Shown here piece by piece: positions 16,166 to 37,750 of a stretch of DNA of 64,000 nt. The notes below the pieces were generated by a model that was not told where the DNA came from, did not search any database, and saw only the letters and a program-made list of their open reading frames with translations. The DNA comes from Candidatus Heimdallarchaeota archaeon (GTDB lineage Archaea > Asgardarchaeota > Heimdallarchaeia > Heimdallarchaeales > Heimdallarchaeaceae). The DNA lies in contig JAUVXV010000007.1 of the NCBI GenBank assembly GCA_030603365.1, positions 76,616 to 140,615 on the forward strand, in the 5' to 3' direction. Each line of letters opens with the position of its first letter. The stretch's first letter is position 1. The position numbers were made by a program, and so were the translations under genes.

Positions 16166-16172
16166 ATGAATA

Positions 16173-19245: not shown

Positions 19246-19258
19246 ATTTTTCCCTCAA

Positions 19259-19753
19259 CTAATCCCACAAATCATCAGATAGCTTATCTATCGCATTACC
19301 ATTCTTGTCATTTCCTTGTTTTGGAAAATCAAATTTTATGGTTGACGTAGAAGTTATCTCTATTTTGAACTGTCCTTTGCTAAATCCTTTGTAAAGTTTC
19401 GGTAAAATTCCTTCCAAAGTACTGGTTGCCAATAGATCTTTCTTTTCAAGTTCTGTTACTACCCAAGAGAACACTTGTTTAATAGAAGTAGCATCATAAT
19501 CAGTCGTATTGAATACAGCAACTAATGAAGCAAGATTATCTCTTTGATCAGCAGTAGGTATGCGAAATATATAACTTGTCAAATTTAGATCATTAAAAGT
19601 CGTTGAAGCAAAATCCCCTGGGTTTGATCCCATCGGGATAGTTTTGTAAACAAGCTGACTCATTGAATCAGTAGGTATAACATCGGGGAAAGATTTGACT
19701 AACTCTAATCCCCTTGCGCCCATATTAATTAGACATAAACTTAATGGTTTCAC
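19259..19753 (-). CDS. Longin/roadblock-like (uDENN-like) domain protein, hypothetical GTPase regulator
   Basis: 164 aa with a GTG start preceded by AGGGGA. The pattern LCLINMGARGLELVKSFPD...TSYIFRIPTADQRDNLASLVAVFN...IKQVFSWVVTELEK resembles longin/uDENN folds. It sits 13 nt upstream of the GTPase gene, and a GAGGG lies in that gap. Confidence 0.5.
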   Translation of the reverse strand: MKPLSLCLINMGARGLELVKSFPDVIPTDSMSQLVYKTIPMGSNPGDFASTTFNDLNLTSYIFRIPTADQRDNLASLVAVFNTTDYDATSIKQVFSWVVTELEKKDLLATSTLEGILPKLYKGFSKGQFKIEITSTSTIKFDFPKQGNDKNGNAIDKLSDDLWD

Positions 19754-20191: not shown

Positions 20192-21610
20192 ATGGAAAAA
20201 GATTATGTTTTTGATCTATTAAACAAAGCAGTTGATCAAGGTCATAAACTTGGTGCAGACTTTTTAGAAGCTAGATATGATGATTTACAATTAACTACAA
20301 TAAATTTAACAAATGATATCATTAAACAATCCTCTTCTATAAATAGAAAAGGTATTGGTGTTATGGCTTATTATCAAGGTACACCAGGTTATAGTTTTAC
20401 TCCTGAATTAAGTTCAGAAGGTGTGGCAGAAGCTACAAAGAAAGCAGTAAAACTAGCAAAGTCAACTGATATAAGAAATAAGCTTAAGCTTGATTTTGAT
20501 AAGATTAAACCAATCAAAGATCATATAGAAGTTAAAGCTAAAAAACATCCAAAAGACTATGAATTTGATGATAAACTCGCTATGCTAAAACGAGGAGTTT
20601 CAGCCATCAAAGAACAAGTAGATGCAACAAGTACTACTGGAATGTATGGAGAGATGTATGGTGAAAAGTTCTTCATTAATTCTGAAGGATCTGAGATTTA
20701 TTGGGTTCCAATGATTGTTGACATGAGAATGGTTGCTGTTCTAATTAGTGAAGGACAACAAGCAATGGGTGCAGAAGGAATAGGAGCTTCTAAAGGTCTT
20801 GAGCACTTTGATGAAAAAGGACGTTCTCCAGAAGACTTCGGAACTATTGCAGGAAAAGACTGTAAAGATTCTTTGAACGCTGTTGCAGCTCCTACTGGCA
20901 AAACAACAACTCTTGTATCTCCTCAAATGGGAGGAGTAGTTGTTCATGAATCATTTGGTCATTTATCAGAAGCAGACTTTGTTGTTACTGGTCAATCTCC
21001 AATTGCAGATAGAGTGGGTGAACAACTTGGAAGTGAGCATGTTACAATTATCGATGAAGGCGTTCCTGAACAAGGAGGTTTGTTCTTTCCATATGATGAT
21101 CAAGGAACTAAAACTGGAAAAACCGTTCTAGTTGAAGATGGAATTCTGAAAGGATATCTTCATAATAGAGGTACTGCTAAGAAAATGAACTCTGAATTAA
21201 CTGGAAACTGCAGGGCAATAAACTTCTTGTATAATCCTATAGTACGAATGAAAAATACTTACTTTGGAGCAGGAAATCTAACTTTTGAAGAAGCTCTAGA
21301 AGAAGTAGGTACAGGAATATATGCAGTAGATATGTCTGGAGGACAAGTTGGATTAGATGGAAACTTCATGTTCAATTGTCGCAAAGGATATCTCATCGAA
21401 AATGGAGAGATAACTAAACCCATAAAAAATTCCTCTTTATCTGGAAATATTTTAGAATTACTCAAATATATTAAAGGTGCAACCAAAGATATTGAAATTC
21501 GAACTGGTTATTTTGGTGGATGTGGTAAAAATGGTCAAAATGGTTTACCTGTTGGTTTAGGTGGTCCTAATGTAATTATGGATCAAGTTCTTGTTGGAGG
21601 TGCTCAATAA
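20192..21610 (+). CDS. tldD: TldD-family metalloprotease (copy 1)
   Basis: 472 aa. The metal-binding HExxxH motif is HESFGH. The conserved C-terminus is GGCGKNGQ...PVGLGGP. Confidence 0.92.
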   Translation: MEKDYVFDLLNKAVDQGHKLGADFLEARYDDLQLTTINLTNDIIKQSSSINRKGIGVMAYYQGTPGYSFTPELSSEGVAEATKKAVKLAKSTDIRNKLKLDFDKIKPIKDHIEVKAKKHPKDYEFDDKLAMLKRGVSAIKEQVDATSTTGMYGEMYGEKFFINSEGSEIYWVPMIVDMRMVAVLISEGQQAMGAEGIGASKGLEHFDEKGRSPEDFGTIAGKDCKDSLNAVAAPTGKTTTLVSPQMGGVVVHESFGHLSEADFVVTGQSPIADRVGEQLGSEHVTIIDEGVPEQGGLFFPYDDQGTKTGKTVLVEDGILKGYLHNRGTAKKMNSELTGNCRAINFLYNPIVRMKNTYFGAGNLTFEEALEEVGTGIYAVDMSGGQVGLDGNFMFNCRKGYLIENGEITKPIKNSSLSGNILELLKYIKGATKDIEIRTGYFGGCGKNGQNGLPVGLGGPNVIMDQVLVGGAQ

Positions 21611-22986
21611 TGTCCTTAGATGATCTTAGAAATAAAATTTTGAATATTGCCGATACAACTATTAAACACTCTAGAGACTTAAATATTCCCTCAACAGAAG
21701 TATTTGTTCTAGAACAATCTACAACAAACTTAACCGATAATAAAGGTAAAGTTGATAGTAGAGATGGATTAGTTCAAGGAATAGGTATCAGAGTAGCAGT
21801 AGGTAAGAAACTAGGATTTGCAAGTTGTACAGGATTTGATGAAGAAACAATTAAATCCACTCTTAAACAAGCTCACAGTATTGCCAATGTAAGTCCTGAA
21901 AATCCAATGTTCAATGGTTTTGTAGCTGAAACCAAAATGTCAAAAGAAGGTATTTTAGACCCAGATATCCCACATCTTGATGCAGATGATCTAATCGAGA
22001 AATGCAATATTATGAATCAAGAAGTTGATCTAAGTGACAGAAGGATTATTTCAGGAAGTTTTGGTGCTAATATTGCATATCAGGGATTTGCAATTGCAAC
22101 TACTGAAGGATGCTTAGCTTCTTCTCTTCAAACAACATTTGGAGCTAATTCTTACTTTGTTGTTACTGATGCTGGAGACCGAAAAACAGCTCAAGATTTT
22201 GTAGCAGCAAGGAAAGTAGAATCAGTTGAAGGAATTGCTCCTAAAGCACTCAATAAAGCAATTAGTTCCTTGGGATCCAAAGCTTTTGGAGGATCAGAAG
22301 TTCTACCAACCATTTGGGAACCTCGTGAATCTGCTCCATTTCTAGCATTTGCATTTTTCAATGTTTTCTCAGGATCTGCTTATGTAGAAAAAAGCAATCC
22401 ATGGAAAGAAAAATTGAATGAAAAGGTGGCTGTAAAAGAATTGACTGTTATTGATGATGGTCAAAAACCTGATACTGAAGCTTGTCAATCTATTGATGCT
22501 GAAGGTACTCCAAAACAAACAACTGCTATCATAGAAGATGGAGTATTGAAGACTTTTCTATTTAATAAAATGTACGGAGATGCTGCTGGTTTTAGTACTA
22601 CAGGAAATGCACAGCGAGGAGGAATCTTTGGTGGCACACCTTACGAAAATATACCTGTTGTAGGACCAAATCAGATGATGATTAAAGAAGTCGCAAAAAA
22701 CCTTGAAGAACAGATCTCAGAAATAGATAAAGGAATTCTTATTACTGGAACACCAATTGGGTTGTTTACAGCTAATCCTGTTACAGGTGACTTCAGTGTT
22801 ACATGCAATGATACATTTCTAATTGAAAAAGGAGAAAAAGTTCATCCTCTGAAATCTATAAGTATTGCAGGGAACTACTTTGAGACCTTGAATAATATCC
22901 GTTTCATTGGAAATGACACAGAACAATCTGGATGGCCGATTGATGCTCCAAGTATGACCTTTCTGAACCATACAATCTCAGATTAA
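21610..22986 (+). CDS. pmbA: PmbA/TldE-family protein (copy 1), partner of TldD
   Basis: 458 aa. The ATG overlaps the tldD stop by 1 nt. It has a TldD/PmbA fold without HExxxH. The conserved block is GIGIRVAVGKKLGFAS. Confidence 0.9.
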   Translation: MSLDDLRNKILNIADTTIKHSRDLNIPSTEVFVLEQSTTNLTDNKGKVDSRDGLVQGIGIRVAVGKKLGFASCTGFDEETIKSTLKQAHSIANVSPENPMFNGFVAETKMSKEGILDPDIPHLDADDLIEKCNIMNQEVDLSDRRIISGSFGANIAYQGFAIATTEGCLASSLQTTFGANSYFVVTDAGDRKTAQDFVAARKVESVEGIAPKALNKAISSLGSKAFGGSEVLPTIWEPRESAPFLAFAFFNVFSGSAYVEKSNPWKEKLNEKVAVKELTVIDDGQKPDTEACQSIDAEGTPKQTTAIIEDGVLKTFLFNKMYGDAAGFSTTGNAQRGGIFGGTPYENIPVVGPNQMMIKEVAKNLEEQISEIDKGILITGTPIGLFTANPVTGDFSVTCNDTFLIEKGEKVHPLKSISIAGNYFETLNNIRFIGNDTEQSGWPIDAPSMTFLNHTISD

Positions 22987-22987
22987 A

Positions 22988-23013
22988 TTCTTCTTTTCCT
23001 TTCTTTTTTTATT
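22988..23013 (+). terminator. Oligo-T tract after pmbA copy 1
   Basis: The sequence ttcttcttttcctttctttttttatt follows the stop codon directly. Archaeal terminators are typically T-runs. Confidence 0.4.
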
Positions 23014-23037
23014 ATTTAACCAATCGGTTTTGAATAA

Positions 23038-23048
23038 TTTTATAAATA
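23038..23048 (+). promoter_or_regulatory. TATA-box-like element (TTTTATAAATA) upstream of tldD copy 2
   Basis: It lies about 125 nt upstream of the GTG at 23171 and is followed by three phased direct repeats (see findings). Confidence 0.3.
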
Positions 23049-23170
23049 TCCTAAGCATGAAAATTTCAATCCTAATCATGTTTACAAATATTCTTAACAT
23101 GATAATGTGACCGACTTGTGACCAGTTACTTAAAGTAAAGTGCTCAAACAAGTACTTATAGAAACACAAG

Positions 23171-24595
23171 GTGAAAATAGTGGAAAATGATTATGTTTTT
23201 GATCTATTACATAAAGCAGTTGATCAAGGTCATAAACTAGGTGCAGATTTTGTAGAGGCAAGGTACGATGATTTAACCTTAACAACTATAAACTATACAA
23301 ATGAAAAGGTTCGAGAATCTTCTACTAAACAACGTAGAGGAATAGGTGTTATGACATATGTCAAGGGTTCTCCCGGATATTCATTTACACCAGACATAAC
23401 TTCAGAAGCAATTCAAGAAACCACAAAACGGTCTCTTGGGATAGCAAAAGCTACTGAACCTCTTTTAACTTTTAAGCACATTTATGATGATCGATCTTCG
23501 ATCAAAGATTCAATTGTAAAGAAAGTAAAAATTCATCCTAAGGAAGTTGAATTTGACGAAAAACTTGACATGCTTAAGCGTGGAATAGCTAACGCTAAGG
23601 ATCAGGTTGATGCTCAATCTACAACAGGTATGTGGGGAGAACTCTGGGGAGATAAATTATTTGTAAACTCTGAACAATCTGAGATTTATTGGACCCCACT
23701 CTTGTTTGATCTACGTATAATGGCAGTTGCTATGACTGAAACTTCTCAAGCTCGTGGTTCTGATGGAGTAGGACAATCTCAAGGGATGGAATATTTTGAT
23801 ATTGAAGCTCACAGCCCTGAAACTCTAGGAACCAATGCTGGTAAATGGTGCAAAGAGCAAATTGATGCTGTTTCTGCTCCACCAGGAAAACATAGAGCTT
23901 TAGTAGGACCAAGAATGGCAGGTGTTCTTGCACATGAAAGTTTTGGTCACCTCTCTGAAACTGATTTTGTTATTACTGGTATGTCTCCAATTTCAGATAG
24001 AGTAGGAGAACAACTTGGAACTGAGCATGCGACTATCATTGATGAAGGTATTACAAAAGAAGGTGGATTCTTCTTACCTTATGATGATCAAGGAACTAAA
24101 ACTGGAAAAACCGTTCTAATGGACAAGGGTATGCTACTGGGTTATCTACATGATAGAAGTACAGCTAATAAAATGAATACTGAACCTACTGGAAATTCTA
24201 GAGCTATTACTTTTATGTTCCCATCGATACCAAGAATGAAAAATACTTATTTCAAGCCTGGAAACATAAGTTTTGATGAAGCTGTAGAACAAGTTGGAGA
24301 TGGTCTCTATACAGCTGGAACTTCAGGAGGTCAAACAGACCTTGATGGTACATTTCTGTTCAAATGTAGTCGTGGATACCTGATTGAAAATGGCGAGATT
24401 ACCAAACCTATCAAAGATGCTGCACTCTCAGGTCAAATTCTAGAATTCATTCAACAAATTAGTGGAGTTACAAATGAGATGGACATATTTACTAGTTACT
24501 TTGGCGGATGCGGAAAAGGTGGTCAATATCCTCTTCCAGTTGGATTAGGTGGACCTAGTCTGGTTGTTGATGAGGTTTTAGTTGGTGGTGAATGA
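23171..24595 (+). CDS. tldD: TldD-family metalloprotease (copy 2)
   Basis: 474 aa with a GTG start and the HESFGH motif. It is collinear with copy 1 throughout. Confidence 0.92.
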   Translation: MKIVENDYVFDLLHKAVDQGHKLGADFVEARYDDLTLTTINYTNEKVRESSTKQRRGIGVMTYVKGSPGYSFTPDITSEAIQETTKRSLGIAKATEPLLTFKHIYDDRSSIKDSIVKKVKIHPKEVEFDEKLDMLKRGIANAKDQVDAQSTTGMWGELWGDKLFVNSEQSEIYWTPLLFDLRIMAVAMTETSQARGSDGVGQSQGMEYFDIEAHSPETLGTNAGKWCKEQIDAVSAPPGKHRALVGPRMAGVLAHESFGHLSETDFVITGMSPISDRVGEQLGTEHATIIDEGITKEGGFFLPYDDQGTKTGKTVLMDKGMLLGYLHDRSTANKMNTEPTGNSRAITFMFPSIPRMKNTYFKPGNISFDEAVEQVGDGLYTAGTSGGQTDLDGTFLFKCSRGYLIENGEITKPIKDAALSGQILEFIQQISGVTNEMDIFTSYFGGCGKGGQYPLPVGLGGPSLVVDEVLVGGE

Positions 24596-24596
24596 A

Positions 24597-25964
24597 ATGG
24601 TTTTAGAAAAAATTCGTTCTGAACTCTTAGAAGTTGCTGATTTAGCTTTGAAATATTCTAAAGATCTAGCTGTACCTACAGCTGAAGCTTTCATCATTAA
24701 GAACTCACTTACTGAAATCAAATATTCTAAAGGTAAAACTGAATGCAGAGATGGTATGGTTCAAGGTATCGGTATTAGAGTAGCAGTTGGAAAGCAAGTA
24801 GGTTTCGCAACATGTGCTGGTTTTGCTTCTGAATCACTTAAAACAACAATTGAAAACGCACACAAAATTGCTAAGAATAGTCCAGAAGATCCTAGATTCT
24901 CAGGATTTGTAGCAGAGAGTAAACCTGGTAAAGAAGGTAATCTTGACGTAAACATAGTAAATCTAGAAACGGCTTCTCTAATTGGACAAATGGCTGAATT
25001 AATCAAAGAAAGCAATATAGACGATCAAAGGTTGGTAGGAGCTGATTTAGAAATAGGTACTGAATGGGGAGGTTATGCAGTAGCAACCACAGAAGGTTGT
25101 TTAGTCTCGTCCATGCATACTACTCATTATGGAACTGCATACGCAGTTACTATGGGACAAGATGAAAGATCCACCGCTTTTGGGTTTAAAGCTGGTCTAA
25201 CTCTTCAAGATTTATCTGGAATTGGAACTTCTGCAATCGAGAAAGCTCTCAAGCATCTTGGCTCAAGTCCATTAGGAGAAACTGTTAAAATACCTACAAT
25301 ATGGGAACCAATTTCAGCATCTATGCTCTTGAGTACAACTTTTACTGTTGGATTAAACGGTGGTACAGTAGTCGAAAAAAGAAATCCTTTGATGAGCAAA
25401 CTTAATGAACAAATTGCCAATAAAGATTTTCAACTCTACGATGATGGTACTAATCCAGAAAAACTATCTTGTGAAGCAGTAGATGCTGAAGGATCTACAG
25501 TGAGAAAAACAGAAATCATAAAAGATGGAGTTCTGAAGAATTTCCTCTTCGACAATTTCTATGGCCCAGTCTTTGGTGCAGGTAGTACAGGTAATGCTAG
25601 ACGCAATCCTCCAACTGAATATGAGAGTCTCCCTACTATAGGTCCTAATAAATTGGTAATTCAACCAGGTACAAAGAATCTTGATGAGATAATAGCGGGT
25701 TTTGATGATGCTATATACATTGAAGGTTTCCCAATGGGTATGGGGCATAGTAACATGATCACTGGTGATTTTTCAGTAACAGCTACAAACGCATATCTTG
25801 TAAAGAATGGAGAGATTGTACATCCTCTTAAACCAGTTAGTATAGCAGGTAATTTCTTCAAGTCTCTTAATGATTTAGAACATGTTGGATCAGATACTAT
25901 TGACTTGCCATTCCCACTAGAAAGTTCAACTTTAGCAATTAATAACCACACTATAAGTGGTTAA
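24597..25964 (+). CDS. pmbA: PmbA/TldE-family protein (copy 2)
   Basis: I prefer the ATG at 24597 (MVLEKIRSELLEVAD, which aligns with MSLDDLRNKILNIAD of copy 1) over the track start at 24582. That ATG lies 1 nt after the tldD2 stop codon (24593..24595). Confidence 0.9.
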   Translation: MVLEKIRSELLEVADLALKYSKDLAVPTAEAFIIKNSLTEIKYSKGKTECRDGMVQGIGIRVAVGKQVGFATCAGFASESLKTTIENAHKIAKNSPEDPRFSGFVAESKPGKEGNLDVNIVNLETASLIGQMAELIKESNIDDQRLVGADLEIGTEWGGYAVATTEGCLVSSMHTTHYGTAYAVTMGQDERSTAFGFKAGLTLQDLSGIGTSAIEKALKHLGSSPLGETVKIPTIWEPISASMLLSTTFTVGLNGGTVVEKRNPLMSKLNEQIANKDFQLYDDGTNPEKLSCEAVDAEGSTVRKTEIIKDGVLKNFLFDNFYGPVFGAGSTGNARRNPPTEYESLPTIGPNKLVIQPGTKNLDEIIAGFDDAIYIEGFPMGMGHSNMITGDFSVTATNAYLVKNGEIVHPLKPVSIAGNFFKSLNDLEHVGSDTIDLPFPLESSTLAINNHTISG

Positions 25965-25990: not shown

Positions 25991-26059
25991 AAAGAGCAAC
26001 TAAAGAAAAGATTAAAATTACATAGTAAAACCAACTATTAAGTTTGGTAGGGGTTGCCA

Positions 26060-26968
26060 ATGAGTCTTCAAACAGATTTACACAGAGAAACAATAAGTTA
26101 CCTTTGCAATAATTGTGGAAAGAAAAGAATTGCACTTATACCTCCGACAATGAAAATTAACGTTGATTCAAGGGGTTTATGTGAATTTGTTGATGTTCAT
26201 CTATGTAAAGAAACAGAATTATCTGCAAACATTCTCTTTATTGATTCTAATAGAGCAGTTAGATCACAAGTACCAGTTGCTAGTGAAAGTAAACCAGCTG
26301 AGGATTTTGAGTTTTCTATACCAATGCCTGAAAAGATTTCTCATGCTAAATATGAAATAAAACCAAATGAAAGCTTTAAAGCACGAATTATTAGAGAAAT
26401 GGAAATAAAAGATGAATTTAGGAACATAATCTATATTATAAACACAGATAAACCAAGAGAAAAATTGGAAGTTGAAACATCTTCCGAATTAGGTTTTATA
26501 AAAATAAGTGCTAACATAACACGAAACACAAATGAAGAAAAGGCTCAAGCTTGGTTACAAAAATTAGCAGACTTAGTCGAGAAAACAGCAAATCTTGATG
26601 AAGGAATATTTTCGATACTGATGTATTTCTTAGATGAGAAGATGAAAGAAAACATGAATGATACAAATGCAAAAGCTTTGGACTGTATATTGCAATCCAC
26701 TGTATCTTTACCATTTTCGAAGGATAATGCTCTTAATGACTTCAACCAGCTTAGGAACACTGTTTTCAAAAAACTAACCGTTGTTGAGGTGATTTATTAC
26801 ACCAATCTACTAAAAATATGTACAAATAATGAGAGTAAGACCTTACTAGATGTTTACTCCAATTTAGAACAAAAGTTACCTTTGTTCCTGTTCTTGAATG
26901 CTGTACATGACTTAATATATCACAATTTAATGGAAATAGAAAAATTAGAGTTCATATCTATTGATTAA
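26060..26968 (+). CDS. Hypothetical protein with an N-terminal CxxC motif
   Basis: I prefer the ATG at 26060, which has GGTAGGGG 6 nt upstream. LCNNCGKK lies near the N-terminus. I recognise no family. Confidence 0.6.
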   Translation: MSLQTDLHRETISYLCNNCGKKRIALIPPTMKINVDSRGLCEFVDVHLCKETELSANILFIDSNRAVRSQVPVASESKPAEDFEFSIPMPEKISHAKYEIKPNESFKARIIREMEIKDEFRNIIYIINTDKPREKLEVETSSELGFIKISANITRNTNEEKAQAWLQKLADLVEKTANLDEGIFSILMYFLDEKMKENMNDTNAKALDCILQSTVSLPFSKDNALNDFNQLRNTVFKKLTVVEVIYYTNLLKICTNNESKTLLDVYSNLEQKLPLFLFLNAVHDLIYHNLMEIEKLEFISID

Positions 26969-26977
26969 TATTAAACT

Positions 26978-28171
26978 CTAAGTCTTATGTGATTTTCTTA
27001 ATAACTTTGCTAGATTTTCTTGACAATTGGGACAGCGAGTATTTTTGTATAACCATTTTTCAATATGTTCTGAATGAGCATAAATTCCGCAGCAAGGTAG
27101 TTTCATAACCTTTTCCTTCTCTTGAGGTTTTAAATCCAATAAACAGACTATACAAGTGGGTCTAGGTGCATCACACTTATCACAAAACTCTTCAGCTTGG
27201 TCAAAAGCATCTCCACAATTGTAACACTTCAATTCTTCAATTCTATCAGCATATTCTTCCAATTTATAGGAGGAGTGGAATATGAGATTCGTTAAGTCTA
27301 AAATGTCCTTAAGATTAACAGTTGATTTAAGTAAAGCAAAGAGCTGATCATCCTCATAATACAACCGTTTTATATCATCTGTAATATTAACTAATAATGA
27401 TTTAACTTTCTTATCTTCAAGAATTTTAAATGCAGCATCAGGAATGGAGGAATGCAGTGAAAATTTTCCTTCTAAAATTGTGATTTCTTTAGTAACATCT
27501 GTTGGTTTTCTAATGTCCATAGCTACTGAAAGCTTGTTTTTGAAGAAAGCTACAAATAGCAAATCTTTATCCCTTGTGAAATTTATTCCTGCCCCTCTAA
27601 TGTTAAAATAAGTACTTTTTCTATTATAATCAAATACCAAACCTGGACTATGTTGAAAAGTCTCTATTTTTAGAGGATCAGTATCTGAAATAATTTTATA
27701 CAATGAATCATTCAATTCAGCTATTTTTTCTGGATTTCTCTCAGTTGATAGAATTTCATAATACCTAGTCATTTTATTTCTTACTCTAGAACCTGAGGTA
27801 ATTGAAGATAGAACAGCAGTTGAGGTTCTAGTACGTGATGAATAAGGTTTTTCAGTTATTACTTCATGAATTCCTGGAACTTCATAAGGTACAGAGCTGG
27901 CAACATTACGTGTTGATTTCACACTCACTGGGTAATTTTGAGTTAGATGCTTCTGACTCTGTTTCTTAATATAATCATCTATTTTCTTTCCTTCAGCTAT
28001 TTCTTCTACCGTAACAGCCCTTCTGAAACCAAGTTTGTTATAATATTTGTCTCCCCCAAATTTTTTCCTTACAAAATCTCGAGATGACAACCATAGAAGT
28101 AATACAAGAATTGCCCCTGTTATTAAAATATAAAGTATAATTTCTCCGACTGTAACCATATTCTCCCACAA
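26978..28171 (-). CDS. N-terminally membrane-anchored protein with a C-terminal zinc ribbon and a RING-variant zinc finger
   Basis: The TM helix is VGEIILYILITGAILVLLLWL. The C-terminus is CYNCGDAFDQAEEFCDKC-DAPRPT-CIVCLLDLKPQEKEKVMKLPCCGIYAHSEHIEKWLYKNTRCPNC. Confidence 0.7.
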   Translation of the reverse strand: MWENMVTVGEIILYILITGAILVLLLWLSSRDFVRKKFGGDKYYNKLGFRRAVTVEEIAEGKKIDDYIKKQSQKHLTQNYPVSVKSTRNVASSVPYEVPGIHEVITEKPYSSRTRTSTAVLSSITSGSRVRNKMTRYYEILSTERNPEKIAELNDSLYKIISDTDPLKIETFQHSPGLVFDYNRKSTYFNIRGAGINFTRDKDLLFVAFFKNKLSVAMDIRKPTDVTKEITILEGKFSLHSSIPDAAFKILEDKKVKSLLVNITDDIKRLYYEDDQLFALLKSTVNLKDILDLTNLIFHSSYKLEEYADRIEELKCYNCGDAFDQAEEFCDKCDAPRPTCIVCLLDLKPQEKEKVMKLPCCGIYAHSEHIEKWLYKNTRCPNCQENLAKLLRKSHKT

Positions 28172-28205
28172 TAAAGTAAGATTAAGATATAATAAAACTA
28201 TCCAA

Positions 28206-29276
28206 TCAAAAATTGCTCATTTTTTTCTGTTTCAGTGTTCTAAGCCAAAGGAATAAATCTTGTTTGCAATTTGGGCACTTTGCATTTGTTTCTAGCCAAC
28301 TTATTAAGTGTTCACGATGTGCATAAATTTCACAACATGGTGTTTGTATCACTTTCTTTTTTTCAGATGGCTTTAAATCTAGTAAACAAACAACACATCT
28401 TGGTCTTGGAGCACCGCATTTATCACATTTGTCCTCGTTGGTTTGGAAGATGTCTTCACATTGGTAGCAAGACAAGTGTTCTATTTCTGCTGTCCCAAAA
28501 TCCTTCAACATTAATTCGTCATGTATAAGAGTGAACAGCTCGAACATTGGTTCAATCATCAAATAATTTGAAATTAGTCCTATTATGAATTTACCATTAA
28601 TAGAAAAATTTAGCAGAGAGTCCTTATGATCTATAATCAAATCATTAAATTCTTTCTTAGTGAAAATCTCATCATATGCAATTTGATGGCTAGAATGGAA
28701 AATGAAATATTTACTAGATTTAATTTGATCTTCAGAAGAGGAAGGTTGTTGCTGTTTTAGTCTTCTTTTAATACTTAATGCAATAGGATAATCCACTCTT
28801 AATATTGCACTAAATTTCATTTCTTCTAGATTTAGAATTTCAATCCCGATGTTGTGTAAAAAGCTATATTTGTGATCTTTGTGAAAATCAAAAGCAATTC
28901 GAGGTAAAGAACCTTCTACTTCTTTCATATTAATTGAACCCAATTTATAGAGTAGAGGTTTTATTTGATTTTTTAACAGATGTTCTTCTTCAGAAATTAG
29001 ATCGTTTTGTCGTAACGCTTGAATTTCTCTAATTTTTCGAGGTGACTTTCTTTCTCTTTTTCTTTTGATTGACCAGTAAGTGTAAATCACTATAACGGTT
29101 AAAATAAACAAACCAAAGATATATGCAAGAAACACAACTAAGTCAAATTCTCGCGTAGGACCCATTAAAGAGGCATTATACAGACCAAAACCTATTCCAA
29201 CTAGCACTAAAATAATTAATGTATCCCTAGCTAGTTTCTTCCACATACTTGTCAGAATATTAAGTAATCTGGTCAC
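28206..29276 (-). CDS. Membrane-anchored protein (two N-terminal TM helices) with a C-terminal zinc ribbon and a RING-variant zinc finger; paralogue of 26978..28171
   Basis: The C-terminus is CYQCEDIFQTNEDKCDKC-GAPRPR-CVVCLLDLKPSEKKKVIQTPCCEIYAHREHLISWLETNAKCPNC. The ligand spacing matches the neighbour. Confidence 0.7.
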   Translation of the reverse strand: MTRLLNILTSMWKKLARDTLIILVLVGIGFGLYNASLMGPTREFDLVVFLAYIFGLFILTVIVIYTYWSIKRKRERKSPRKIREIQALRQNDLISEEEHLLKNQIKPLLYKLGSINMKEVEGSLPRIAFDFHKDHKYSFLHNIGIEILNLEEMKFSAILRVDYPIALSIKRRLKQQQPSSSEDQIKSSKYFIFHSSHQIAYDEIFTKKEFNDLIIDHKDSLLNFSINGKFIIGLISNYLMIEPMFELFTLIHDELMLKDFGTAEIEHLSCYQCEDIFQTNEDKCDKCGAPRPRCVVCLLDLKPSEKKKVIQTPCCEIYAHREHLISWLETNAKCPNCKQDLFLWLRTLKQKKMSNF

Positions 29277-29334: not shown

Positions 29335-30138
29335 TCATGAACAATATTTTTCTAGTTCAAAAGCACCTTCCATTAATTCTCCTAGTCTTCTCATGAATCT
29401 TACTGCAGGAGCACCATCTGTGATAATGTGGTCTATTCTTATAGATAAATTCAAGATTTCTCTATTTAATAATTTACCATCAATTAATCTTGGTTTGAAT
29501 GAAATCCCACCAGTCACAATGTTTACAGGATGATGACCAAGATTTACACCCCAACCACTCATTCCTTTTCCAAACATACCTACAGTAGTAACTTGCACTG
29601 AACTATTGAGTTTCTTATGGAGTTTGGGGTTATTCATCACTCTGTTCCAGAAGAAAATTGTCCTGAAGATTTTTGGAATTTTTAGAAGAAGTTTTAACTG
29701 TTTGGTGGAAATATCACTAGAAATATCCTCCTTTGATTTAGGTCTCTGTACTTCTCGTATCTCGTTGTGAATTTGCATGACATCTTTCTCATGAGCTTTT
29801 CTAATATTATAGAGAGTTGGAAAAGGTTTACCATCTATTGTTTTTTCTATTGCAATCGAAACATCTACATCATCGAAGATATACAACTTCTTTCTTTTTT
29901 TGAAAGCGTGAACTTGTGGATTGTCAGCAACAGCAACACTTACGCATCTAACAACCCAGGCAGTGAATGAAAGGGATTTACCATGTTTTTCTTTGTAACT
30001 TCTGAAAAACTCTCTAGCTTTTGTTATATCTAATTCTACAAGACCTTGCATGAAAAGCATGTGACGAGACATAGCAGTAACTTCAGCTTGAAGTTGTCTC
30101 TTGAAAGGAATTACTTTGTATTTTCCAATCTTATCCAT
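29335..30138 (-). CDS. 2-oxoacid dehydrogenase acyltransferase (E2) catalytic-domain-only protein
   Basis: The catalytic DHxxxDG motif is DHIITDGAPAVRFMRRL. It has the length of a CAT-like fold and no lipoyl domain. Confidence 0.75.
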   Translation of the reverse strand: MDKIGKYKVIPFKRQLQAEVTAMSRHMLFMQGLVELDITKAREFFRSYKEKHGKSLSFTAWVVRCVSVAVADNPQVHAFKKRKKLYIFDDVDVSIAIEKTIDGKPFPTLYNIRKAHEKDVMQIHNEIREVQRPKSKEDISSDISTKQLKLLLKIPKIFRTIFFWNRVMNNPKLHKKLNSSVQVTTVGMFGKGMSGWGVNLGHHPVNIVTGGISFKPRLIDGKLLNREILNLSIRIDHIITDGAPAVRFMRRLGELMEGAFELEKYCS

Positions 30139-30216
30139 TATTACTCATGGAAAAACCAATTTAGGTTCTTTATTAATTTTATCTATTATACAAAATAAAG
30201 ACATAAATGGAAGAAT

Positions 30217-30552
30217 TTACCATTCTTCATCTGGTCTTCGTTCTGGAATCATTTCTAAAGGTGTTGTAAAATCGTACTTGGGGTCATAAAATAATGCACA
30301 ATAACATCGTCCATATTCTTCGATATCAGCTTGGGCATAATCACATGGACAGATTATATCCCTATCCATGGTTCTGTCTTCATTAGAATCACGGCAAGGG
30401 CAGTTAAAATAACCTATTCTATTGAAATAATCTTTCAAACCATCAACAAGTATCTCATAAGTTTCATCTCTACTTGGATCAAGAATCCATTCCCTTTTAT
30501 TTGCTACTTGTTTAGCGTATTTTTCAACATCTTTGTAAGTTTTTTCTGCCAT
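30217..30552 (-). CDS. Ferredoxin:thioredoxin reductase catalytic-subunit-like protein
   Basis: The sequence FNCPCRDSNEDRTMDRDIICPCDYAQADIEEYGRCYCALF carries the CPC...CPC...CxC cysteine pattern of the FTR catalytic subunit. Confidence 0.8.
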   Translation of the reverse strand: MAEKTYKDVEKYAKQVANKREWILDPSRDETYEILVDGLKDYFNRIGYFNCPCRDSNEDRTMDRDIICPCDYAQADIEEYGRCYCALFYDPKYDFTTPLEMIPERRPDEEW

Positions 30553-30561
30553 ATTATCAAC

Positions 30562-30876
30562 CTATTCTAACAATATTTCTTTCCAATTATCGATGTTAAA
30601 ACCAGCGTAAAATTTGTTATCATCAACTATTAAAAAAGGATATCTGACCATTGTATTGAAGGACTTACTAACTTCTCTTTTGAATTCTCTTTTTTCGTCA
30701 ATAGGTAATTTATCTACATCTACAAAGCGATAATGGTAATCATTGTCTTTTAACCATTGCTTTCCTTTCTTGCACCAATGGCATGTGCTTAGAGCTAACA
30801 TAAAAATGGAGTTGGTTTTCTTAGTACCATCAACTTCAACAATCTCTCCAGGTATTTTAATATCTTCGAAACTCAT
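30562..30876 (-). CDS. Glutaredoxin/thioredoxin-like small redox protein
   Basis: The CxxC active site is STCHWCKKGKQWL. I prefer the start at MSFEDIK (30876) over the track start at 30933. It lies 9 nt upstream of the FTR-like gene. Confidence 0.75.
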   Translation of the reverse strand: MSFEDIKIPGEIVEVDGTKKTNSIFMLALSTCHWCKKGKQWLKDNDYHYRFVDVDKLPIDEKREFKREVSKSFNTMVRYPFLIVDDNKFYAGFNIDNWKEILLE

Positions 30877-30994
30877 TATGTAATCGAGATACAGATAGAG
30901 AATTGAAATATAAAGTTGTTTTTCATACAACATTTCTAAAGATTAATTTTGGATAGATGTGATGGTTTTTATTCAAAAAAACATATCTTAAATC

Positions 30995-31786: not shown

Positions 31787-33466
31787 ATGTCAAGTGAGAA
31801 AAATATTTTTTGTTCCGAATGTGGTTCTGGAAATCCTGATACAGCTAAATTTTGTAGAGAATGTGGATTCAACCTTGAAAAAAGAAAAGCTCTTCCGTTG
31901 AAATCTTCACTCCTTGTTCAGAACTCTGAAGAAGAAACTGGAGAGGGCAGTGATGTTTTTATTAGTTATGAGTGTTTAAGTTGTAATGCTTTAAATCCGT
32001 CAACAAATGAATATTGTTTTCACTGTGGAATATACGGATTTTACGAACAACTCTTGTGTTCAAAATGTCGTGATATTGTAAAAGAAGAAGAAACTACATG
32101 CGATAGCTGCAATTTACAATTCAGTAAGAGGGATACATCAGAATTAGGAATACTAGAGTTTGATAGGGAAGAAAAAGATAGATTCATGGTTGAAATAATA
32201 AATGCCATTCAAAGAAGTGGATACAGCTTGGATTCATCTTTTTATGAAGGAAGAATGAGAAATTCTTTGAATCACTATACAACAATCAAACTACTAATGT
32301 CACCAGAATGTCCTCAAAAATTATTAGACAAATATACCACACTTCCCACCAAAAAACAAGCGTCACTTAAAGCAGATTCTGCTGCTGTAGAGAAACTACA
32401 AAAAATTTCTGAATTGTATACCAAAACTTTAGCTCTAGCCCCTCTGGCCTTGAAATACTGGGAAAATAGTGTGAGTTTAGTTGCTTACTTTTGGTATTTC
32501 CTGAATGATGAGAAATCTCCAAGTAAAGAACAGGAAATGGTTTCATCAAATCTCATACAGTATTTGAAAAATTCCGATAAGTTAGTTGAATATTTGTTTG
32601 CTATAGCTTCAACAGATAAACAGACTTACATTGTAGCTCAGGAGAAACGACTCAATGATCATCTTTTGTTGAATCTTTTACCAAAATACCAAAAGGAAGG
32701 AATGCCTTTGGCAATTGTAATAAATAGTTTGGGAACAATAGGTAACACTATTGATTCAGATTTCGGGTCTAAGGAAAAAAATAAACTCGATGACTACTAT
32801 AAATCAAAATCTCTAAAGTATTTTGAAGCAGCAGTTATACTTACGGCATGCACTACAAATTTTATGTGGAAGAATAAAATGGTAAAATTAATACCATTAG
32901 TAATGAATAATCAAATAAATCAGACACAAGAAAAAGGTGAGAAAATATCTGTTCGAACTCGTATGCAAATAAACGAGAAATTACTTAAAGCGGCTATAGA
33001 TTCAACTAAAAAATCTCCTAAAATTTTGGATGAGGATTCAATTAAAACTATATTGTATTGTATAGGATTTCTGTATGCAAAAAGTAATTATCAAGAAATT
33101 AAGAAGGAAGGACAAAAAGTTTTGAAACTAATTGATGAATTATTTGAGGAAACTATTTCAAAAAGGATTAAAATCTTTATAGGAGACTTCAATGCAATCT
33201 CAATAGGTTTAGCTTATATTTATGATAATAAAGTATCATTATATACAGATAGAATTTTAGTACTCGCAAAAACGCTAAAAGATTCAGAAGATAGAAACAA
33301 TCTAATTTATAATGCAACGGAAGGCTTAGGATTTTTCTTCAGACAAACCAGACAAATTTGGTCACAAGAAGCTGCAGTCATACTGATAAAGAAATTAGAT
33401 AAAGAATTTGTTGCTAAAATTGCTGAAGAAGAAAGGAAGGATCAACGCGAAAAAATGAATAGGTAG
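31787..33466 (+). CDS. Protein with three N-terminal zinc ribbons and a large alpha-helical C-terminal domain, hypothetical
   Basis: The three ribbons are CSECGSGNPDTAKFCRECG, CLSCNALNPSTNEYCFHCG and CSKCRDIVKEEETTCDSCN. The remaining 430 aa or so are helical and repeat-like. Confidence 0.65.
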   Translation: MSSEKNIFCSECGSGNPDTAKFCRECGFNLEKRKALPLKSSLLVQNSEEETGEGSDVFISYECLSCNALNPSTNEYCFHCGIYGFYEQLLCSKCRDIVKEEETTCDSCNLQFSKRDTSELGILEFDREEKDRFMVEIINAIQRSGYSLDSSFYEGRMRNSLNHYTTIKLLMSPECPQKLLDKYTTLPTKKQASLKADSAAVEKLQKISELYTKTLALAPLALKYWENSVSLVAYFWYFLNDEKSPSKEQEMVSSNLIQYLKNSDKLVEYLFAIASTDKQTYIVAQEKRLNDHLLLNLLPKYQKEGMPLAIVINSLGTIGNTIDSDFGSKEKNKLDDYYKSKSLKYFEAAVILTACTTNFMWKNKMVKLIPLVMNNQINQTQEKGEKISVRTRMQINEKLLKAAIDSTKKSPKILDEDSIKTILYCIGFLYAKSNYQEIKKEGQKVLKLIDELFEETISKRIKIFIGDFNAISIGLAYIYDNKVSLYTDRILVLAKTLKDSEDRNNLIYNATEGLGFFFRQTRQIWSQEAAVILIKKLDKEFVAKIAEEERKDQREKMNR

Positions 33467-34178: not shown

Positions 34179-35681
34179 TTAGCTCAAATTTTCTAGTATT
34201 AAGTCATCAATTTTACTTCTAGATGATGTATCTTTTCCGTTAAAAATCTCTTGAGCAATTTTACTTATCTCATCCTCTATTGATTTGCTAAACTTAGGAA
34301 TTTTGATATTCGCCATTATACGTTGCGTATAAGAGATTCTATGTCCCCTTCTTGCTCCAGCAGATAAGTAATAATCTCTAAAGAAGTGACTATTAAGATA
34401 CCCGAGCAAAAAGAAAGGATCCTTCTTCTGTGGAACAATAGTTAGAACATCACCTGAAGGGAACAGTGGTTTCGATATCAAACTAAACCTATTAGAAGTA
34501 CTTCTATCTAAATTAGGGACGAAAATTTTGGGATCGTCTTTAAAGGTTTTAAGTTTCTCATAATTTCTGAGAGCCTGCCAATGGAACCATTTCTTATTTT
34601 CAGGTAAATATCTTACACTCATACTCTCTTTATAATCAGCAATTTTCAAGTAAATTTGTGGACACTTCTCTTTAAGTTCCTTTTCAGTTAGAATCTTTTT
34701 GTCTAAAAGGACATATTCTGTATAACCTTCTGTCCAAAAACCTTTACAATTTCTAGCCTTGATACAATTTAATAGTAAATTCTTCTCTGTATTGTTTAAA
34801 GTCTTCTTGAAATCTTCAGATACAGTATAAGCCTTCTCAAACCCAGAAACTAAACCTACACCAATCCAAGCAACATTTTTAAGAAAATAATACTCTTTTA
34901 GAATTTTTTCTGGATAGGTGGTCCAAATCACGTTTTCTTCGGAAAACATATCATGCTCATGATAATCAAAATAGGAACTACTCTCGCTAGTTTCCAATGT
35001 TTTTAATGCTTCAGATTTTATTTTCTTTGCATTTAAATTACGATTTTTAATTCTTAAAATTCTTATTTGTGGATGGACTTTCTGCTGGGTTTTCACAAAT
35101 TTAAAGATGATTGTTTCAGGATTTTCTCCCTCAAATAACCTAGATTCATCTAAATCAATTATAATCTCAATATATCCATTTTGTTTTATTTTGTCTCTGA
35201 CCACTTTTGCATATGTATTGAAGAAGAAACCATATGGAACGATGTAAATTAGCTCTCCACCAGTTTTTAAAAGATCAATGGATTTCATGATAAAGGCGTA
35301 ATAGATGTCAGACTCTTTGTTTCCAACAATATCTGCAACTTTTATTTTCATCTGTTTTGGTAAAGAGTTGAAGTGGCAATACGGAGGATTACCTATAATA
35401 ATATCGTATTTTGAGTTTGTTATCCACTCGAGATAATCTAAGTTGTGGATATTCAGATTTGGAAATTTACTCTTTGTATAGTTACATAGATCATCATCCA
35501 ACTCAATTCCTGAGATATTAGTGAAACCTACTTTTTTTAGCATCTCGATAAATATACCTTTACCTGAACCAGAATCTAGAATAGAAATTCTATCATTTGA
35601 TTTCTTATTATCGCTAATTGAACCTATCATTAAGTTTACGATGGGTTCAGGGGTTTCAACAAAAGCTATAGGTCCAACCAT
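34179..35681 (-). CDS. N6-adenine DNA methyltransferase, TaqI/Eco57I-like (gamma class)
   Basis: The N-terminal block is FVETPEPIVNLM, motif I is ILDSGSGKGIF, and motif IV is IIIGNPPY. A C-terminal target-recognition-like domain is present. Confidence 0.88.
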   Translation of the reverse strand: MVGPIAFVETPEPIVNLMIGSISDNKKSNDRISILDSGSGKGIFIEMLKKVGFTNISGIELDDDLCNYTKSKFPNLNIHNLDYLEWITNSKYDIIIGNPPYCHFNSLPKQMKIKVADIVGNKESDIYYAFIMKSIDLLKTGGELIYIVPYGFFFNTYAKVVRDKIKQNGYIEIIIDLDESRLFEGENPETIIFKFVKTQQKVHPQIRILRIKNRNLNAKKIKSEALKTLETSESSSYFDYHEHDMFSEENVIWTTYPEKILKEYYFLKNVAWIGVGLVSGFEKAYTVSEDFKKTLNNTEKNLLLNCIKARNCKGFWTEGYTEYVLLDKKILTEKELKEKCPQIYLKIADYKESMSVRYLPENKKWFHWQALRNYEKLKTFKDDPKIFVPNLDRSTSNRFSLISKPLFPSGDVLTIVPQKKDPFFLLGYLNSHFFRDYYLSAGARRGHRISYTQRIMANIKIPKFSKSIEDEISKIAQEIFNGKDTSSRSKIDDLILENLS

Positions 35682-35740
35682 TGTCTAAGTACACTAAATG
35701 AAAAATATGTGTTCAACATATAAATTCTTGCTAGAAATCA

Positions 35741-37750
35741 TCAAAGATCTACTTGTTCTAAAAGGTCCTCGATTTTACTTGGAACTGTTGAGACAAACTT
35801 AGTAACAACGGGAGGTATTTCTTTGATTCTATTTGCTAATGTCATTGACCACATTCTAATGTCCGAGCTTACTTCTGATGCAATAACTGCTACTAAACCA
35901 TTTTTAATCGCTTGTAATGTTATACAGAAATCTTCGTAGTTTACATCTTTCAGTCGTCCTATCTCATCCCCTTCTAGGATACTTTCAGCGAATTGTGTAA
36001 TTGCCATCAAAAGTCCAGAGAGTAGTAGATCATTAGCTTTGAGTTTGTCTTTTAATTTGGAATAAATTGGTATTCCGCTGTCAGAGATTATTAACAATCC
36101 TAAAACCTCAACAGTTTTCTGCTTTGCCTGTGTAAGTTTAAGTGATAGAAGTGATTTAAATTGTGGTAGAATGAACTCGATAATATTCTGACTTTGAATA
36201 TCAAGTTGCCCTGTTTTGATTGCCTTGTTAATGCTTTCCTCAATAACATCAATATCATTCATTAAATCAAAAATATCAATATCTTTACTCAATTCACGAG
36301 CTTTCTCTAAATCTCTTTTTGAATCTTCATAATCCCCCGTTAATAAGCAAAGCACTGAACAAATCATTAAACTTGTAGCTAAGATTTGTTTATGATTATT
36401 TTCTACAGCTAGTTGTCTAACTGTATCTATATACGACATGGCCAGATTAAGTGATTCTTTTTTCTCAAGTAAACGATAATACCACAAATGAGCTATTGCA
36501 AGCTGTATATTGCAGAATAGAATCAATTCCATATCTTTTGTGTGTTTAGACTGTTCAAGAGATGATTCGAGATAAGCGAGAGCATTGGATAGATTATGAT
36601 TTAACATTTCGTAAAATCCTCTCAGATAATCAACACGAGCATTAATCGATGGAGTTTCTAATTCTTTGGCTAACCCTCTTAACTCCCTGAGATATTTCAT
36701 AGCAGTTTTCAGATTCTCTACTCGTAAATAATAGTGAATAAGTTCATACATGATGAAAGCTTTGTGCATCGATTTTTCTTGTTTCTGAATTTCATAGGCA
36801 TGTAAGAAAGACTCTTCAGCTCTTTGATCACCTAGAAGATAATAGATATTGCCAATTTCTGTCAAATATAGATATGGCCATTTTCCAGTTGATTCTTTAT
36901 AGAGGGCTATTGCTCTCTCCATCATTTCTTTAGCTTTTTGTATTTGACCTAAAACAAGATGAACTTCAGCTAAATTTCCTATTGCAATTGATAATCTATA
37001 ATCGTCTTTAAAATCCTCATGAAGAATTATCAATTTCTCAAAACTTTCCATTGCTTCAATATTATCTCCAATGAAGCTGTTTTTTCCTCCTTTAACATTT
37101 AAATAGCTGGTTTGTACTTTATAGAAATTGTATTTTTCTACAAAAGGTTCTATAAAATTAAACATTTCCTCAAAATTCACCTCAACTCCCGAATGAAGAT
37201 ACCACCAGAGAGAATTCATATATGCTTCTTGCAATCCAAACTGTTCGACTAAATTATCAGTTTTTTGTATTCGTTTTTTCACATACAAATGGATTTCTTT
37301 AATTTTGGCTATATCTCCTTGTTGACCATACATCCAGGAGCTTATCTCTGCTATATTCGCTTTCATTTCTTCTGAATATTCTGGGTGTTTTTCGAGCTTT
37401 TTAATGTTTGATTTCAGATTCTCGAATGATTCCTGATAATTTGTAGGGTTCTCCTCAAAATAAGTGATAAAAGCATCTATGTAAGGATGTTCTACCTTCT
37501 TTAGGAGATTTATGAAATCATCATCAGCTTTCATTTTTTGAGTAAGATAACAGCTGAAAGATGCTATTTCTAATTTATCTCCTTCGCTGTATTTATCAGG
37601 CTTCTCTAAAACTTCCTGTAATGCAATTGCTGCACCTTTTCTTATTCTTTCATTTGGATTTTTATCTTGTTGATCTTCAATCAACTCCTTTAACATCATT
37701 TGAAGTGGATAAGAGAATCTGTTAACAAAAAACTCAAGAAATTCTTGCAT
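35741..37750 (-). CDS. TPR-repeat protein with a C-terminal roadblock/longin-like module
   Basis: The central region has many TPR-like repeats (..AIALYKES.., ..ALAYLESSLEQ..). The C-terminus is VEVLGLLIISDSGIPIYSKLKDKLKANDLLLSGLLMAITQFAESIL...LVAVIASEV. Confidence 0.7.
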   Translation of the reverse strand: MQEFLEFFVNRFSYPLQMMLKELIEDQQDKNPNERIRKGAAIALQEVLEKPDKYSEGDKLEIASFSCYLTQKMKADDDFINLLKKVEHPYIDAFITYFEENPTNYQESFENLKSNIKKLEKHPEYSEEMKANIAEISSWMYGQQGDIAKIKEIHLYVKKRIQKTDNLVEQFGLQEAYMNSLWWYLHSGVEVNFEEMFNFIEPFVEKYNFYKVQTSYLNVKGGKNSFIGDNIEAMESFEKLIILHEDFKDDYRLSIAIGNLAEVHLVLGQIQKAKEMMERAIALYKESTGKWPYLYLTEIGNIYYLLGDQRAEESFLHAYEIQKQEKSMHKAFIMYELIHYYLRVENLKTAMKYLRELRGLAKELETPSINARVDYLRGFYEMLNHNLSNALAYLESSLEQSKHTKDMELILFCNIQLAIAHLWYYRLLEKKESLNLAMSYIDTVRQLAVENNHKQILATSLMICSVLCLLTGDYEDSKRDLEKARELSKDIDIFDLMNDIDVIEESINKAIKTGQLDIQSQNIIEFILPQFKSLLSLKLTQAKQKTVEVLGLLIISDSGIPIYSKLKDKLKANDLLLSGLLMAITQFAESILEGDEIGRLKDVNYEDFCITLQAIKNGLVAVIASEVSSDIRMWSMTLANRIKEIPPVVTKFVSTVPSKIEDLLEQVDL

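Follow-up and report, generated by a model that had tools for sequence, protein, structure and literature searches.

Tandem membrane-anchored proteins of Heimdallarchaeia that combine a zinc ribbon with a variant RING finger are candidate ubiquitin ligases

Two adjacent genes, A and B, occupy positions 26978-29276 of a 64-kb stretch of DNA (the window) from a Candidatus Heimdallarchaeota archaeon. With moderate confidence, we consider their products to be candidates for cytoplasm-facing, membrane-anchored RING-type ubiquitin (E3) ligases of a paralogous family specific to Heimdallarchaeia, a reading that draws on sequence comparisons and predicted structures. An original prediction, made from the letters of the sequence, had placed tandem paralogues in this interval, and the open reading frame (ORF) list does contain two minus-strand ORFs there, oriented in the same direction, whose products are 34% identical over 224 amino acids (aa; E 2e-42). 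The arguments are the invariance of the zinc ligands, the near-invariance of the residues expected to contact an E2 enzyme, the exclusive similarity of the fingers to RING-H2 E3 ligases in sequence searches, and a related finger that is encoded within the ubiquitin operon of the same lineage.

Gene A (26978-28159, minus strand; protein P0001, 393 aa) encodes a single-pass membrane paralogue, and gene B (28206-29246, minus strand; protein P0005, 346 aa) encodes a two-pass membrane protein. The ORF of A reaches a TTG at 28171 and that of B a GTG at 29276; the starts in the database gene calls are ATGs inside these longer ORFs. The gap between the genes is 46 nt and includes an A/T-rich, TATA-like stretch, with GGGAGA right ahead of the ATG of A, and judging from these features A may be either co-transcribed with B or transcribed separately. 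N-terminal transmembrane helices had been proposed for both proteins, and a hydrophobicity scan places one in A and two in B. The single helix of A (residues ~4-27; 28079-28150, minus strand, as for all A and B coordinates below) is also seen by AlphaFold2 (AF2) and is followed by a basic stretch, and the two hydrophobic helices of B (residues ~8-29 and ~31-61; 29058-29225; same methods) form a hairpin that is followed by KRKRERKSPRK. Because a Lys/Arg cluster comes after the last transmembrane helix in both proteins, the positive-inside rule points to a cytoplasmic location for the remainder of A and B, the compartment in which Cys-Zn fingers and E2 enzymes would be expected to work.

The membrane anchor of A is followed by a linker of ~85 residues (residues ~35-119; 27803-28057), which is predicted to be disordered (AF2 predicted local distance difference test score (pLDDT) <50), is an insertion relative to B-type proteins and is specific to the A subfamily. 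Next comes an alpha/beta middle domain (A residues ~120-300, 27260-27802; B residues ~86-246, 28509-28991). It is predicted confidently by AF2 (pLDDT ~90; mean for the entire model of B, 84.9), and its folded part amounts to ~180 aa rather than the ~250 aa originally suggested. The AF2 models were built on the family alignment and do not contain zinc. The C-terminus consists of a zinc ribbon, found in the sequence and, for A, in the alignment (A, C312-x2-C315-x10-C326-x2-C329, 27173-27226; B, C260-x2-C263-x10-C274-x2-C277, 28416-28469), and a variant RING finger. The finger of A is C336-x2-C339-x16-C356-C357-x4-H362-x2-H365-x10-C376-P-x-C379, with Q380 in the so-called linchpin position (27020-27154; Pfam, PDB alignments and AF2), and that of B is C284-x2-C287-x16-C304-C305-x4-H310-x2-H313-x10-C324-P-x-C327, with K328 in this position (28263-28397; Pfam, AF2 and Foldseek).

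The C-terminal pattern shared by A and B is CxxC-x10-CxxC-x6-CxxC-x16-CC-x4-HxxH-x10-CPxC. The family alignment comprises 27 homologues from a word-indexed sequence search, and among these the B-type members are just 23-28% identical to A. Since all 12 of the 12 Cys/His ligands are invariant with constant spacing at a mean column identity of 38%, and the RING ligand pattern is seen again in 133 distinct CC-type fingers, the conservation of ligands across these sequences is far beyond chance. Alignments with RING-H2 proteins put C356 of A at ligand 3, H362 at ligand 5 and H365 at the position usually held by Cys-6. The column of the canonical His-4 has a non-ligand residue (Gly in A, Glu in B), and C357 lies one residue past C3. 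The ligand order of A and B is thus C4H2C2 (C-C-C-C-H-H-C-C), with two adjacent cysteines as ligands 3 and 4. In a RING there are two tetrahedral Zn sites, with ligand pairs 1,2 plus 5,6 and 3,4 plus 7,8. A sister variant of the finger has C-P-x-C-x4-HxxH in place of CC-x4-HxxH, and because it keeps the x4 spacing to His-5, comparison of the two sequences shows both cysteines of the doublet in the putative ligand positions 3 and 4, as in a conventional zinc knuckle. Such an adjacent-Cys ligand pair is of structural interest for how RING fingers are defined.

Most of what the original prediction said of this region holds. The CC doublet in place of C-x-H, the His at the sixth-Cys position and the total of eight ligands all agree with the hidden Markov model alignments. 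The four-Cys ribbon is likewise present, but its central spacing, given as x10/11, is x10 in both proteins. The finger strings occur exactly as written in both, except that a gap written as x9 is x10 (C2 and C3 are 16 residues apart). The proposed collinearity with eukaryotic RING-H2 fingers is also borne out, as follows.

The Pfam model zf-RING_2 (PF13639) scores 27.5 bits for A and 28.0 bits for B, with a gathering cut-off of 27.3, and is the only model of the RING clan that passes for the two proteins; U-box, zf-C3HC4, zf-rbx1, RINGv and PHD give no match to A or B in the Pfam scan, even at E ≤ 1. Within the family, zf-RING_2 matches 27 of 27 members at E ≤ 0.01 (best, 3.7e-7). The PDB sequences retrieved with the fingers, by single-sequence and by profile searches, are exclusively RING-H2 E3 ligases (RLIM, EL5, RNF38, Arkadia, RNF165/Ark2C, RNF24 and synoviolin). 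The fingers of the AF2 models have pLDDT values of ~87-93 and the strand-strand-helix (beta-beta-alpha) core typical of RING, and Foldseek aligns the final ~50 residues with the RING of RNF165 (5ulk_C) at a TM-score of 0.78 and root mean square deviations (rmsd) of 1.7 Å for A and 1.4 Å for B over 49-50 columns. For both fingers the prediction is therefore a RING with its beta-beta-alpha fold, and not the two sequential ribbons that had been named as the contrary outcome. The canonical C3H2C3 order (C-x2-C...C-x-H-x2-H-x2-C...C-x2-C) is found in neither protein, and because their ligand order differs from it, we consider A and B to be variant rather than canonical members of the RING-H2 group.

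The positions at which a RING contacts its E2, which in c-Cbl are I383, W408 and the Pro of CPxC, were mapped through the RING-H2 alignments and counted over the 133 CC-type fingers. A Val or Ile is found at C1+2 in 132 of these fingers, a Trp four residues past ligand 6 in 126, and a Pro after C7 in 132 (V338, W369 and P377 in A; V286, W317 and P325 in B). The residue after the last Cys, the linchpin, locks the ubiquitin-charged E2 (E2~Ub) in active RINGs. Here it is more variable (Lys/Arg in 61 of the 133, His in 28, Gln in 12 and Gly in 11), and it tracks the subfamily, being Lys, or rarely Arg, in B-type and Gln or His in A-type proteins. The RING is followed by a conserved amphipathic helix, which reads DLFLWLRxLKQ in B-type proteins. 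Tails of this kind contribute to pairing in dimeric RINGs, and by analogy the helix may be involved in pairing here as well, as we infer.

The ubiquitin system can be connected to these fingers in two ways, of which operon content is the stronger evidence and proximity of B-type genes the lesser. In four Heimdall lineages (L007/L031, with L034; L040; L042/43; and L044-46, where L numbers denote loci of relatives), the ubiquitin-(ubiquitin)-E1-E2-JAB gene series has as its next and last gene one that encodes an orthologous polytopic membrane protein with a variant RING (L007, 3098-4204, minus strand; L040, 9251-10444, plus strand; L042, 9296-10399, plus strand; L044, 4100-5245, plus strand). 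Its versions are 27-35% identical between the lineages. A low-complexity, S/T/R-rich linker leads to the C-terminal finger, CxIC-x13/14-C(P/K)xC-x4-H...W...CxRC, which is similar to those of A and B (E ~1e-7). Sequence CP070760.1 has only a 103-aa transmembrane remnant after JAB (L041, 9495-9803). Because this polytopic finger protein ends the ubiquitin-E1-E2-JAB series, the candidate E3 of the Heimdall ubiquitin operon would itself be membrane-embedded, and the fingers of A and B appear to be of the same lineage. As for the E2, it is widespread in Heimdallarchaeia, and its sequence is highly conserved between Heimdallarchaeaceae, Kariarchaeaceae, Hodarchaeales and LC_3.

As for proximity, contig JABCTC010000011 (L007/L034) has a ubiquitin/E1/E2/JAB cluster at 2.5-7 kb from a B-type orthologue, so that the genome of a relative with a B-type gene does carry conjugation machinery, and in the congeneric metagenome-assembled genome (MAG) L031 the B-type orthologue is at the same distance from such a cluster. 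In L009 and L038, which belong to the clade of L007/L031, no ubiquitin cluster is near the B-type gene. We considered linkage of A and B to the ubiquitin operon as strong evidence and dropped it, since it recurs only in L007/L034 and the close relative L031.

The family appears to be restricted to Heimdallarchaeia. When 1.84 billion representatives are searched exhaustively with the family profile, 613 match at E ≤ 1e-3; a threshold of 1e-10 leaves 106 of them and one of 1e-30 leaves 39. The last set consists of full-length relatives, while the weaker matches have the ribbon-RING module alone, in proteins of 90-1687 aa that mostly have 1-7 predicted transmembrane helices. Among the best 150 matches, 90 have CC-x4-HxxH, ~33 have C-P-x-C-x4-HxxH, and just 4 have the canonical C-x-H...H-xx-C pattern. 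All named full-length members are from Candidatus Heimdallarchaeota, in keeping with the Asgard origin implied by the original prediction, and looser relatives include Hodarchaeales and Freyarchaeum. One homologue has automatically been named "E3 ubiquitin protein ligase" in the databases. RING fingers as such are a listed Asgard signature domain (PMC11291895).

A scan of species-representative genomes yields 29 loci in MAGs of the Heimdall group, with 2-5 family genes per genome. B-type proteins have two transmembrane helices, ~345 aa and a Lys after the last Cys, and A-type proteins have one transmembrane helix, a long linker and Gln or His after the last Cys. A-type genes occur in five loci: in the window and in L004/L011 they immediately adjoin a B gene, two genes lie between A and B in L010, and in L008 an A-type gene occupies the syntenic place of B. 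A further arrangement, absent from the window, is a common tandem array of genes for a 4-helix protein of 414 aa, a 1-helix protein of ~310 aa and a 2-helix protein of ~308 aa (e.g., L022, 8228-11416; also L021, L026, L028, L037, L017 and L019). All three of these paralogues carry the ribbon and the CC-HxxH finger.

Several observations weigh against the assignment of A and B as ubiquitin ligases. The zf-RING_2 scores are marginal, being barely above the threshold. The linchpin is other than Lys or Arg in over half of the CC-type fingers, and two adjacent cysteines on one zinc would be unusual. No ubiquitin, E1, E2, JAB, proteasome or Cdc48 gene is found in the 64-kb window by tblastn with Heimdall proteins and Pfam scans of the larger ORFs; for ubiquitin, E1 and E2 this had already been remarked in the original prediction. 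The proximity of B-type genes to the ubiquitin operon is confined to one genus and is weak evidence. Outside that genus, the neighbours, which are glutaredoxin-like (Grx), ferredoxin-thioredoxin reductase (FTR-B), 2-oxoacid dehydrogenase (2-oxoacid_dh) and PmbA/TldD genes, have no evident functional link. The window sequence is present in DNA metagenome runs only, from cold seeps and marine sediments, and a search of sequencing runs gives no RNA runs that contain it. Lastly, the best composite structural matches of the modelled ribbon plus RING are the C-terminal domains of GATOR2/SEA.

This last point underlies the main alternative, which we think rather unlikely but which deserves the most attention, namely that ribbon and RING are architectural zinc domains that join membrane paralogues to one another (A with B; in the arrays, C with D and E), much as in GATOR2/SEA, without ligase activity, and that the middle domains carry some other membrane role. 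For the unit of helix, ribbon and RING, the most consistent Foldseek matches are the C-terminal domains of GATOR2/SEA and IFT-A, in dozens of chains (E 4e-4 to 5e-3, probability ≥0.98, 100-125 columns, 20-24% identity), and the zinc domains of GATOR2/SEA are considered mainly architectural. Tandem pairs and triplets of paralogues in many genomes and the variable linchpin also suit a structural role. Pfam zinc_ribbon_16 is matched by one family member at E 7e-4, but A and B score just 13.3 and 12.8 bits with it, well under the cut-off of 27. Furthermore, a purely structural role does not require the E2-contact residues Val/Ile, Trp and Pro to be nearly invariant, the sequence searches return bona fide RING-H2 domains of E3 ligases only, and a sister finger is encoded within the ubiquitin operon.

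The middle domain bears on a second alternative. Pfam, NCBIfam and PADLOC contain no model that matches it, and its sole significant fold match is mycobacterial TtfA (PDB 6t84; TM-score 0.47 and E 5e-6 for A; TM-score 0.52, rmsd 6.0 over 179 columns and E 5e-4 for B; 7-13% identity), with no sequence-level signal between the two. TtfA is an N-terminally anchored accessory of the MmpL3 transporter; the fold of its soluble domain is atypical and shows no obvious pocket for a ligand (PMC7458404). The modelled likeness is a hint that the middle domain is a membrane-proximal protein-binding module. Taken further, it could mean that A and B act outside ubiquitin-like conjugation altogether, as signalling or regulatory anchors or TtfA-like transporter accessories, with a RING-like fold that serves for protein or ligand binding only. 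A major facilitator superfamily (MFS) transporter gene immediately upstream in L001, L006 and L010 would fit such a role, as would a window devoid of ubiquitin genes, but the MFS gene is missing from the window and L004, and the resemblance to TtfA is modest. We hold this explanation to be improbable, since it also leaves the E2-contact conservation and the ubiquitin-operon sister finger unaccounted for.

That A and B are E3-like adaptors for another ubiquitin-like modifier (SAMP/Urm1-type or other), and not for Asgard ubiquitin proper, is very doubtful: Heimdall operons do have two distinct ubiquitin-like genes (annotated ubiquitin and Rad60-SLD) and the A/B family is scattered through the genome rather than operonic, but the RING surface that is conserved serves for contact with UBC-fold E2s, and SAMP/Urm1 conjugation is not known to need an E2 or an E3.

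If A and B are membrane-anchored ubiquitin ligases, as we favour, the RING would bind the charged Asgard E2~Ub and activate transfer, and the middle domain, held at the membrane, would select substrates, probably membrane or membrane-proximal proteins. The ribbon would either buttress the RING or mediate pairing. From their Lys/Arg linchpin, B-type proteins are probably the active ligases and B the catalytic form of the pair. The A-type, with a Gln or His linchpin and a gene that is usually beside that of a B-type protein, may be a partner or regulatory subunit, and A a partner of B, as in heterodimeric RING pairs. A more far-reaching version is that Heimdallarchaeia have an expanded set of membrane RING ligases, made up of one polytopic E3 from the ubiquitin operon and 2-5 dispersed ribbon-RING paralogues, which ubiquitylate membrane proteins; that this is a prokaryotic forerunner of ubiquitylation of the ERAD (endoplasmic reticulum-associated degradation) or endosomal-sorting type; and that the module is related by descent to the C-terminal zinc modules of eukaryotic complexes that derive from membrane coats (GATOR2/SEA and possibly HOPS/CORVET and IFT-A). 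We regard this combination as speculative and, in its entirety, unlikely.

RING proteins as a kind are already known in Asgard archaea, and what is new is the membrane-anchored, multi-copy variant with a ribbon and a C4H2C2 finger. The literature that we searched contains no membrane-anchored RING ligase in Asgard archaea and no account of a C4H2C2 "CC" finger fused to a ribbon, of a TtfA-like domain or membrane anchoring in such proteins, of several such paralogues per Heimdall genome, or of a polytopic membrane E3 that ends the Heimdall ubiquitin operon. Hitherto, discussion and reconstitution of Asgard ubiquitin systems have involved RING proteins that are small and soluble. The candidate E3 repertoire of Heimdallarchaeia, a lineage near the eukaryotic stem, is likely to be largely membrane-bound and multi-copy. 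Should A, B and their relatives prove active, membrane ubiquitylation, commonly regarded as a eukaryotic process, would be older than the eukaryotic endomembranes, where ERAD, sorting that depends on ESCRT (endosomal sorting complexes that are required for transport) and nutrient-transporter turnover depend on it, and A, B and the operonic polytopic E3 would be defined targets for learning what archaeal ubiquitin modifies.

The surroundings of A and B in the window have several features of their own. Convergent with gene A is a gene (26054-26968, plus strand) for a 304-aa soluble hypothetical protein (hyp304), which is 60-75% identical in L001, L004 and L006 and is thus better conserved than the RING genes. 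It has an invariant C18-x2-C21...C43...H49-x-C51 and no Pfam, NCBIfam or PADLOC match. Beyond it are four consecutive genes for PmbA/TldD-family metallopeptidase paralogues (20192-25964, plus strand), of which relatives have 2-4 copies beside the RING locus. Upstream of B is a conserved trio (29335-30933, minus strand) of a glutaredoxin-like protein, a homologue of the FTR catalytic subunit and a protein of 267 aa whose only match is to the catalytic domain of 2-oxoacid dehydrogenase acyltransferases. A functional module of A and B with Grx, FTR-B, 2-oxoacid_dh, hyp304 and PmbA/TldD was considered and set aside, as only the closer relatives keep these neighbours, and L007/L009 have others; we read the arrangement as general synteny. 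A defence-system context was likewise discarded, with no match from NCBIfam or PADLOC.

A few kb from the RING genes is a conserved cluster of Asgard trafficking-type genes (13906-19753, minus strand), which encodes an Arf-family small GTPase (18721-19245) and proteins of 164, 277, 468 and 469 aa. The 468-aa protein (16173-17579) has a weak longin-domain match, and the L006/L008 counterpart of the 469-aa protein has faint SMCR8_C matches. Two other proteins contain zinc ribbons and no RING motif: one of 559 aa, with a double ribbon at its N-terminus (31787-33466, plus strand), and a NosD/beta-helix protein of 420 aa whose ribbon is internal (9866-11128, plus strand). Two genes are of the Eco57I/N6-methylase type (34179-37750, minus strand; 54576-56276, plus strand). 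Eco57I and TPR_MalT matches are seen in what corresponds, in relatives, to the first (500 aa) and to its 669-aa neighbour, and the pair is syntenic in L001-L004. A TPR_MalT protein encoded after the operonic RING gene in L044-46 aligns with the 669-aa TPR protein of the window (23.6% over 339 aa, E 6e-7), which we judge to be repeat-level similarity and uninformative. There is also a sign of mobile elements, a TnpB/IS605 OrfB-type protein with a Cas12f1-like TNB domain (1249-2508, minus strand), and an RNase III of the bacterial/eukaryotic type, uncommon in archaea, with a C-terminal double-stranded RNA-binding motif (52419-53228, minus strand).

Among known systems, the best matches of A and B in both sequence and fold are the eukaryotic RING-H2 E3s (RNF165/Ark2C, Arkadia, RLIM, RNF38 and EL5). 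The two groups have in common the collinear P-C at ligand 3, HxxH/C-I-x-x-W-L and C-P-x-C, the E2-contact Val/Ile, Trp and Pro and, in B-type proteins, the Lys/Arg linchpin. A and B differ in being archaeal and membrane-anchored, in having C4H2C2 rather than C3H2C3 ligands and a zinc ribbon fused upstream, and in their middle domain, which is not found in eukaryotic RING proteins.

The membrane anchor combined with a cytoplasmic RING is shared with Hrd1/gp78, the RING-CH proteins MARCH/Doa10 and RNF13-type proteins. The original prediction saw in A and B a reminder of ER-membrane E3 ligases, which is apt as an analogy of architecture but not of descent: the membrane and middle regions have no homology to those of transmembrane RING ligases, and the RINGv and C3HC4 models do not match. 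RING-CH fingers (C4HC3) resemble A and B in having Cys as ligand 4 and His as ligand 5, but A and B have His as ligand 6, a C3-C4 spacing of 0 and a C4-H5 spacing of 4. GATOR2/SEA (WDR24, WDR59 and MIOS; Sea2-4) also combine a zinc ribbon with a RING in sets of paralogous subunits. Their C-terminal zinc modules hold four zinc ions and those of A and B a predicted three; there is no significant sequence similarity, and A and B are without a beta-propeller or alpha-solenoid. TtfA resembles A and B in its N-terminal transmembrane anchor and the soluble alpha/beta domain of ~180 aa that follows, but is bacterial and has no zinc domains.

A further group is that of the archaeal RING E3s. An archaeal E1/E2/RING cascade works in vitro with the Caldiarchaeum RING (srfp), whose C3/H4 ligands are displaced, as are those of A and B, and which has an extra Cys (PMC5654768); a cascade with a Helarchaeial RING E3 has also been reconstituted in vitro (bioRxiv 10.1101/2023.07.25.550441). 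These archaeal RINGs work with eukaryote-like E1 and E2 enzymes. Both of these E3s are small, soluble and operon-encoded, whereas A and B are of 346-393 aa, membrane-anchored, multi-domain and multi-copy, and lie outside any ubiquitin operon. The polytopic protein of the Heimdall operon differs from A and B in its at least 4-5 transmembrane helices (by hydrophobicity), its S/T/R linker, the lack of a ribbon and a TtfA-like domain, its CxxC at ligands 3 and 4 (CPHC or CKFC) and a Glu instead of His at position 6. Like A and B, it is membrane-embedded, belongs to the same lineage and carries a homologous finger, which has the C4-x4-H5 spacing, Trp and closing CxxC in common with theirs.

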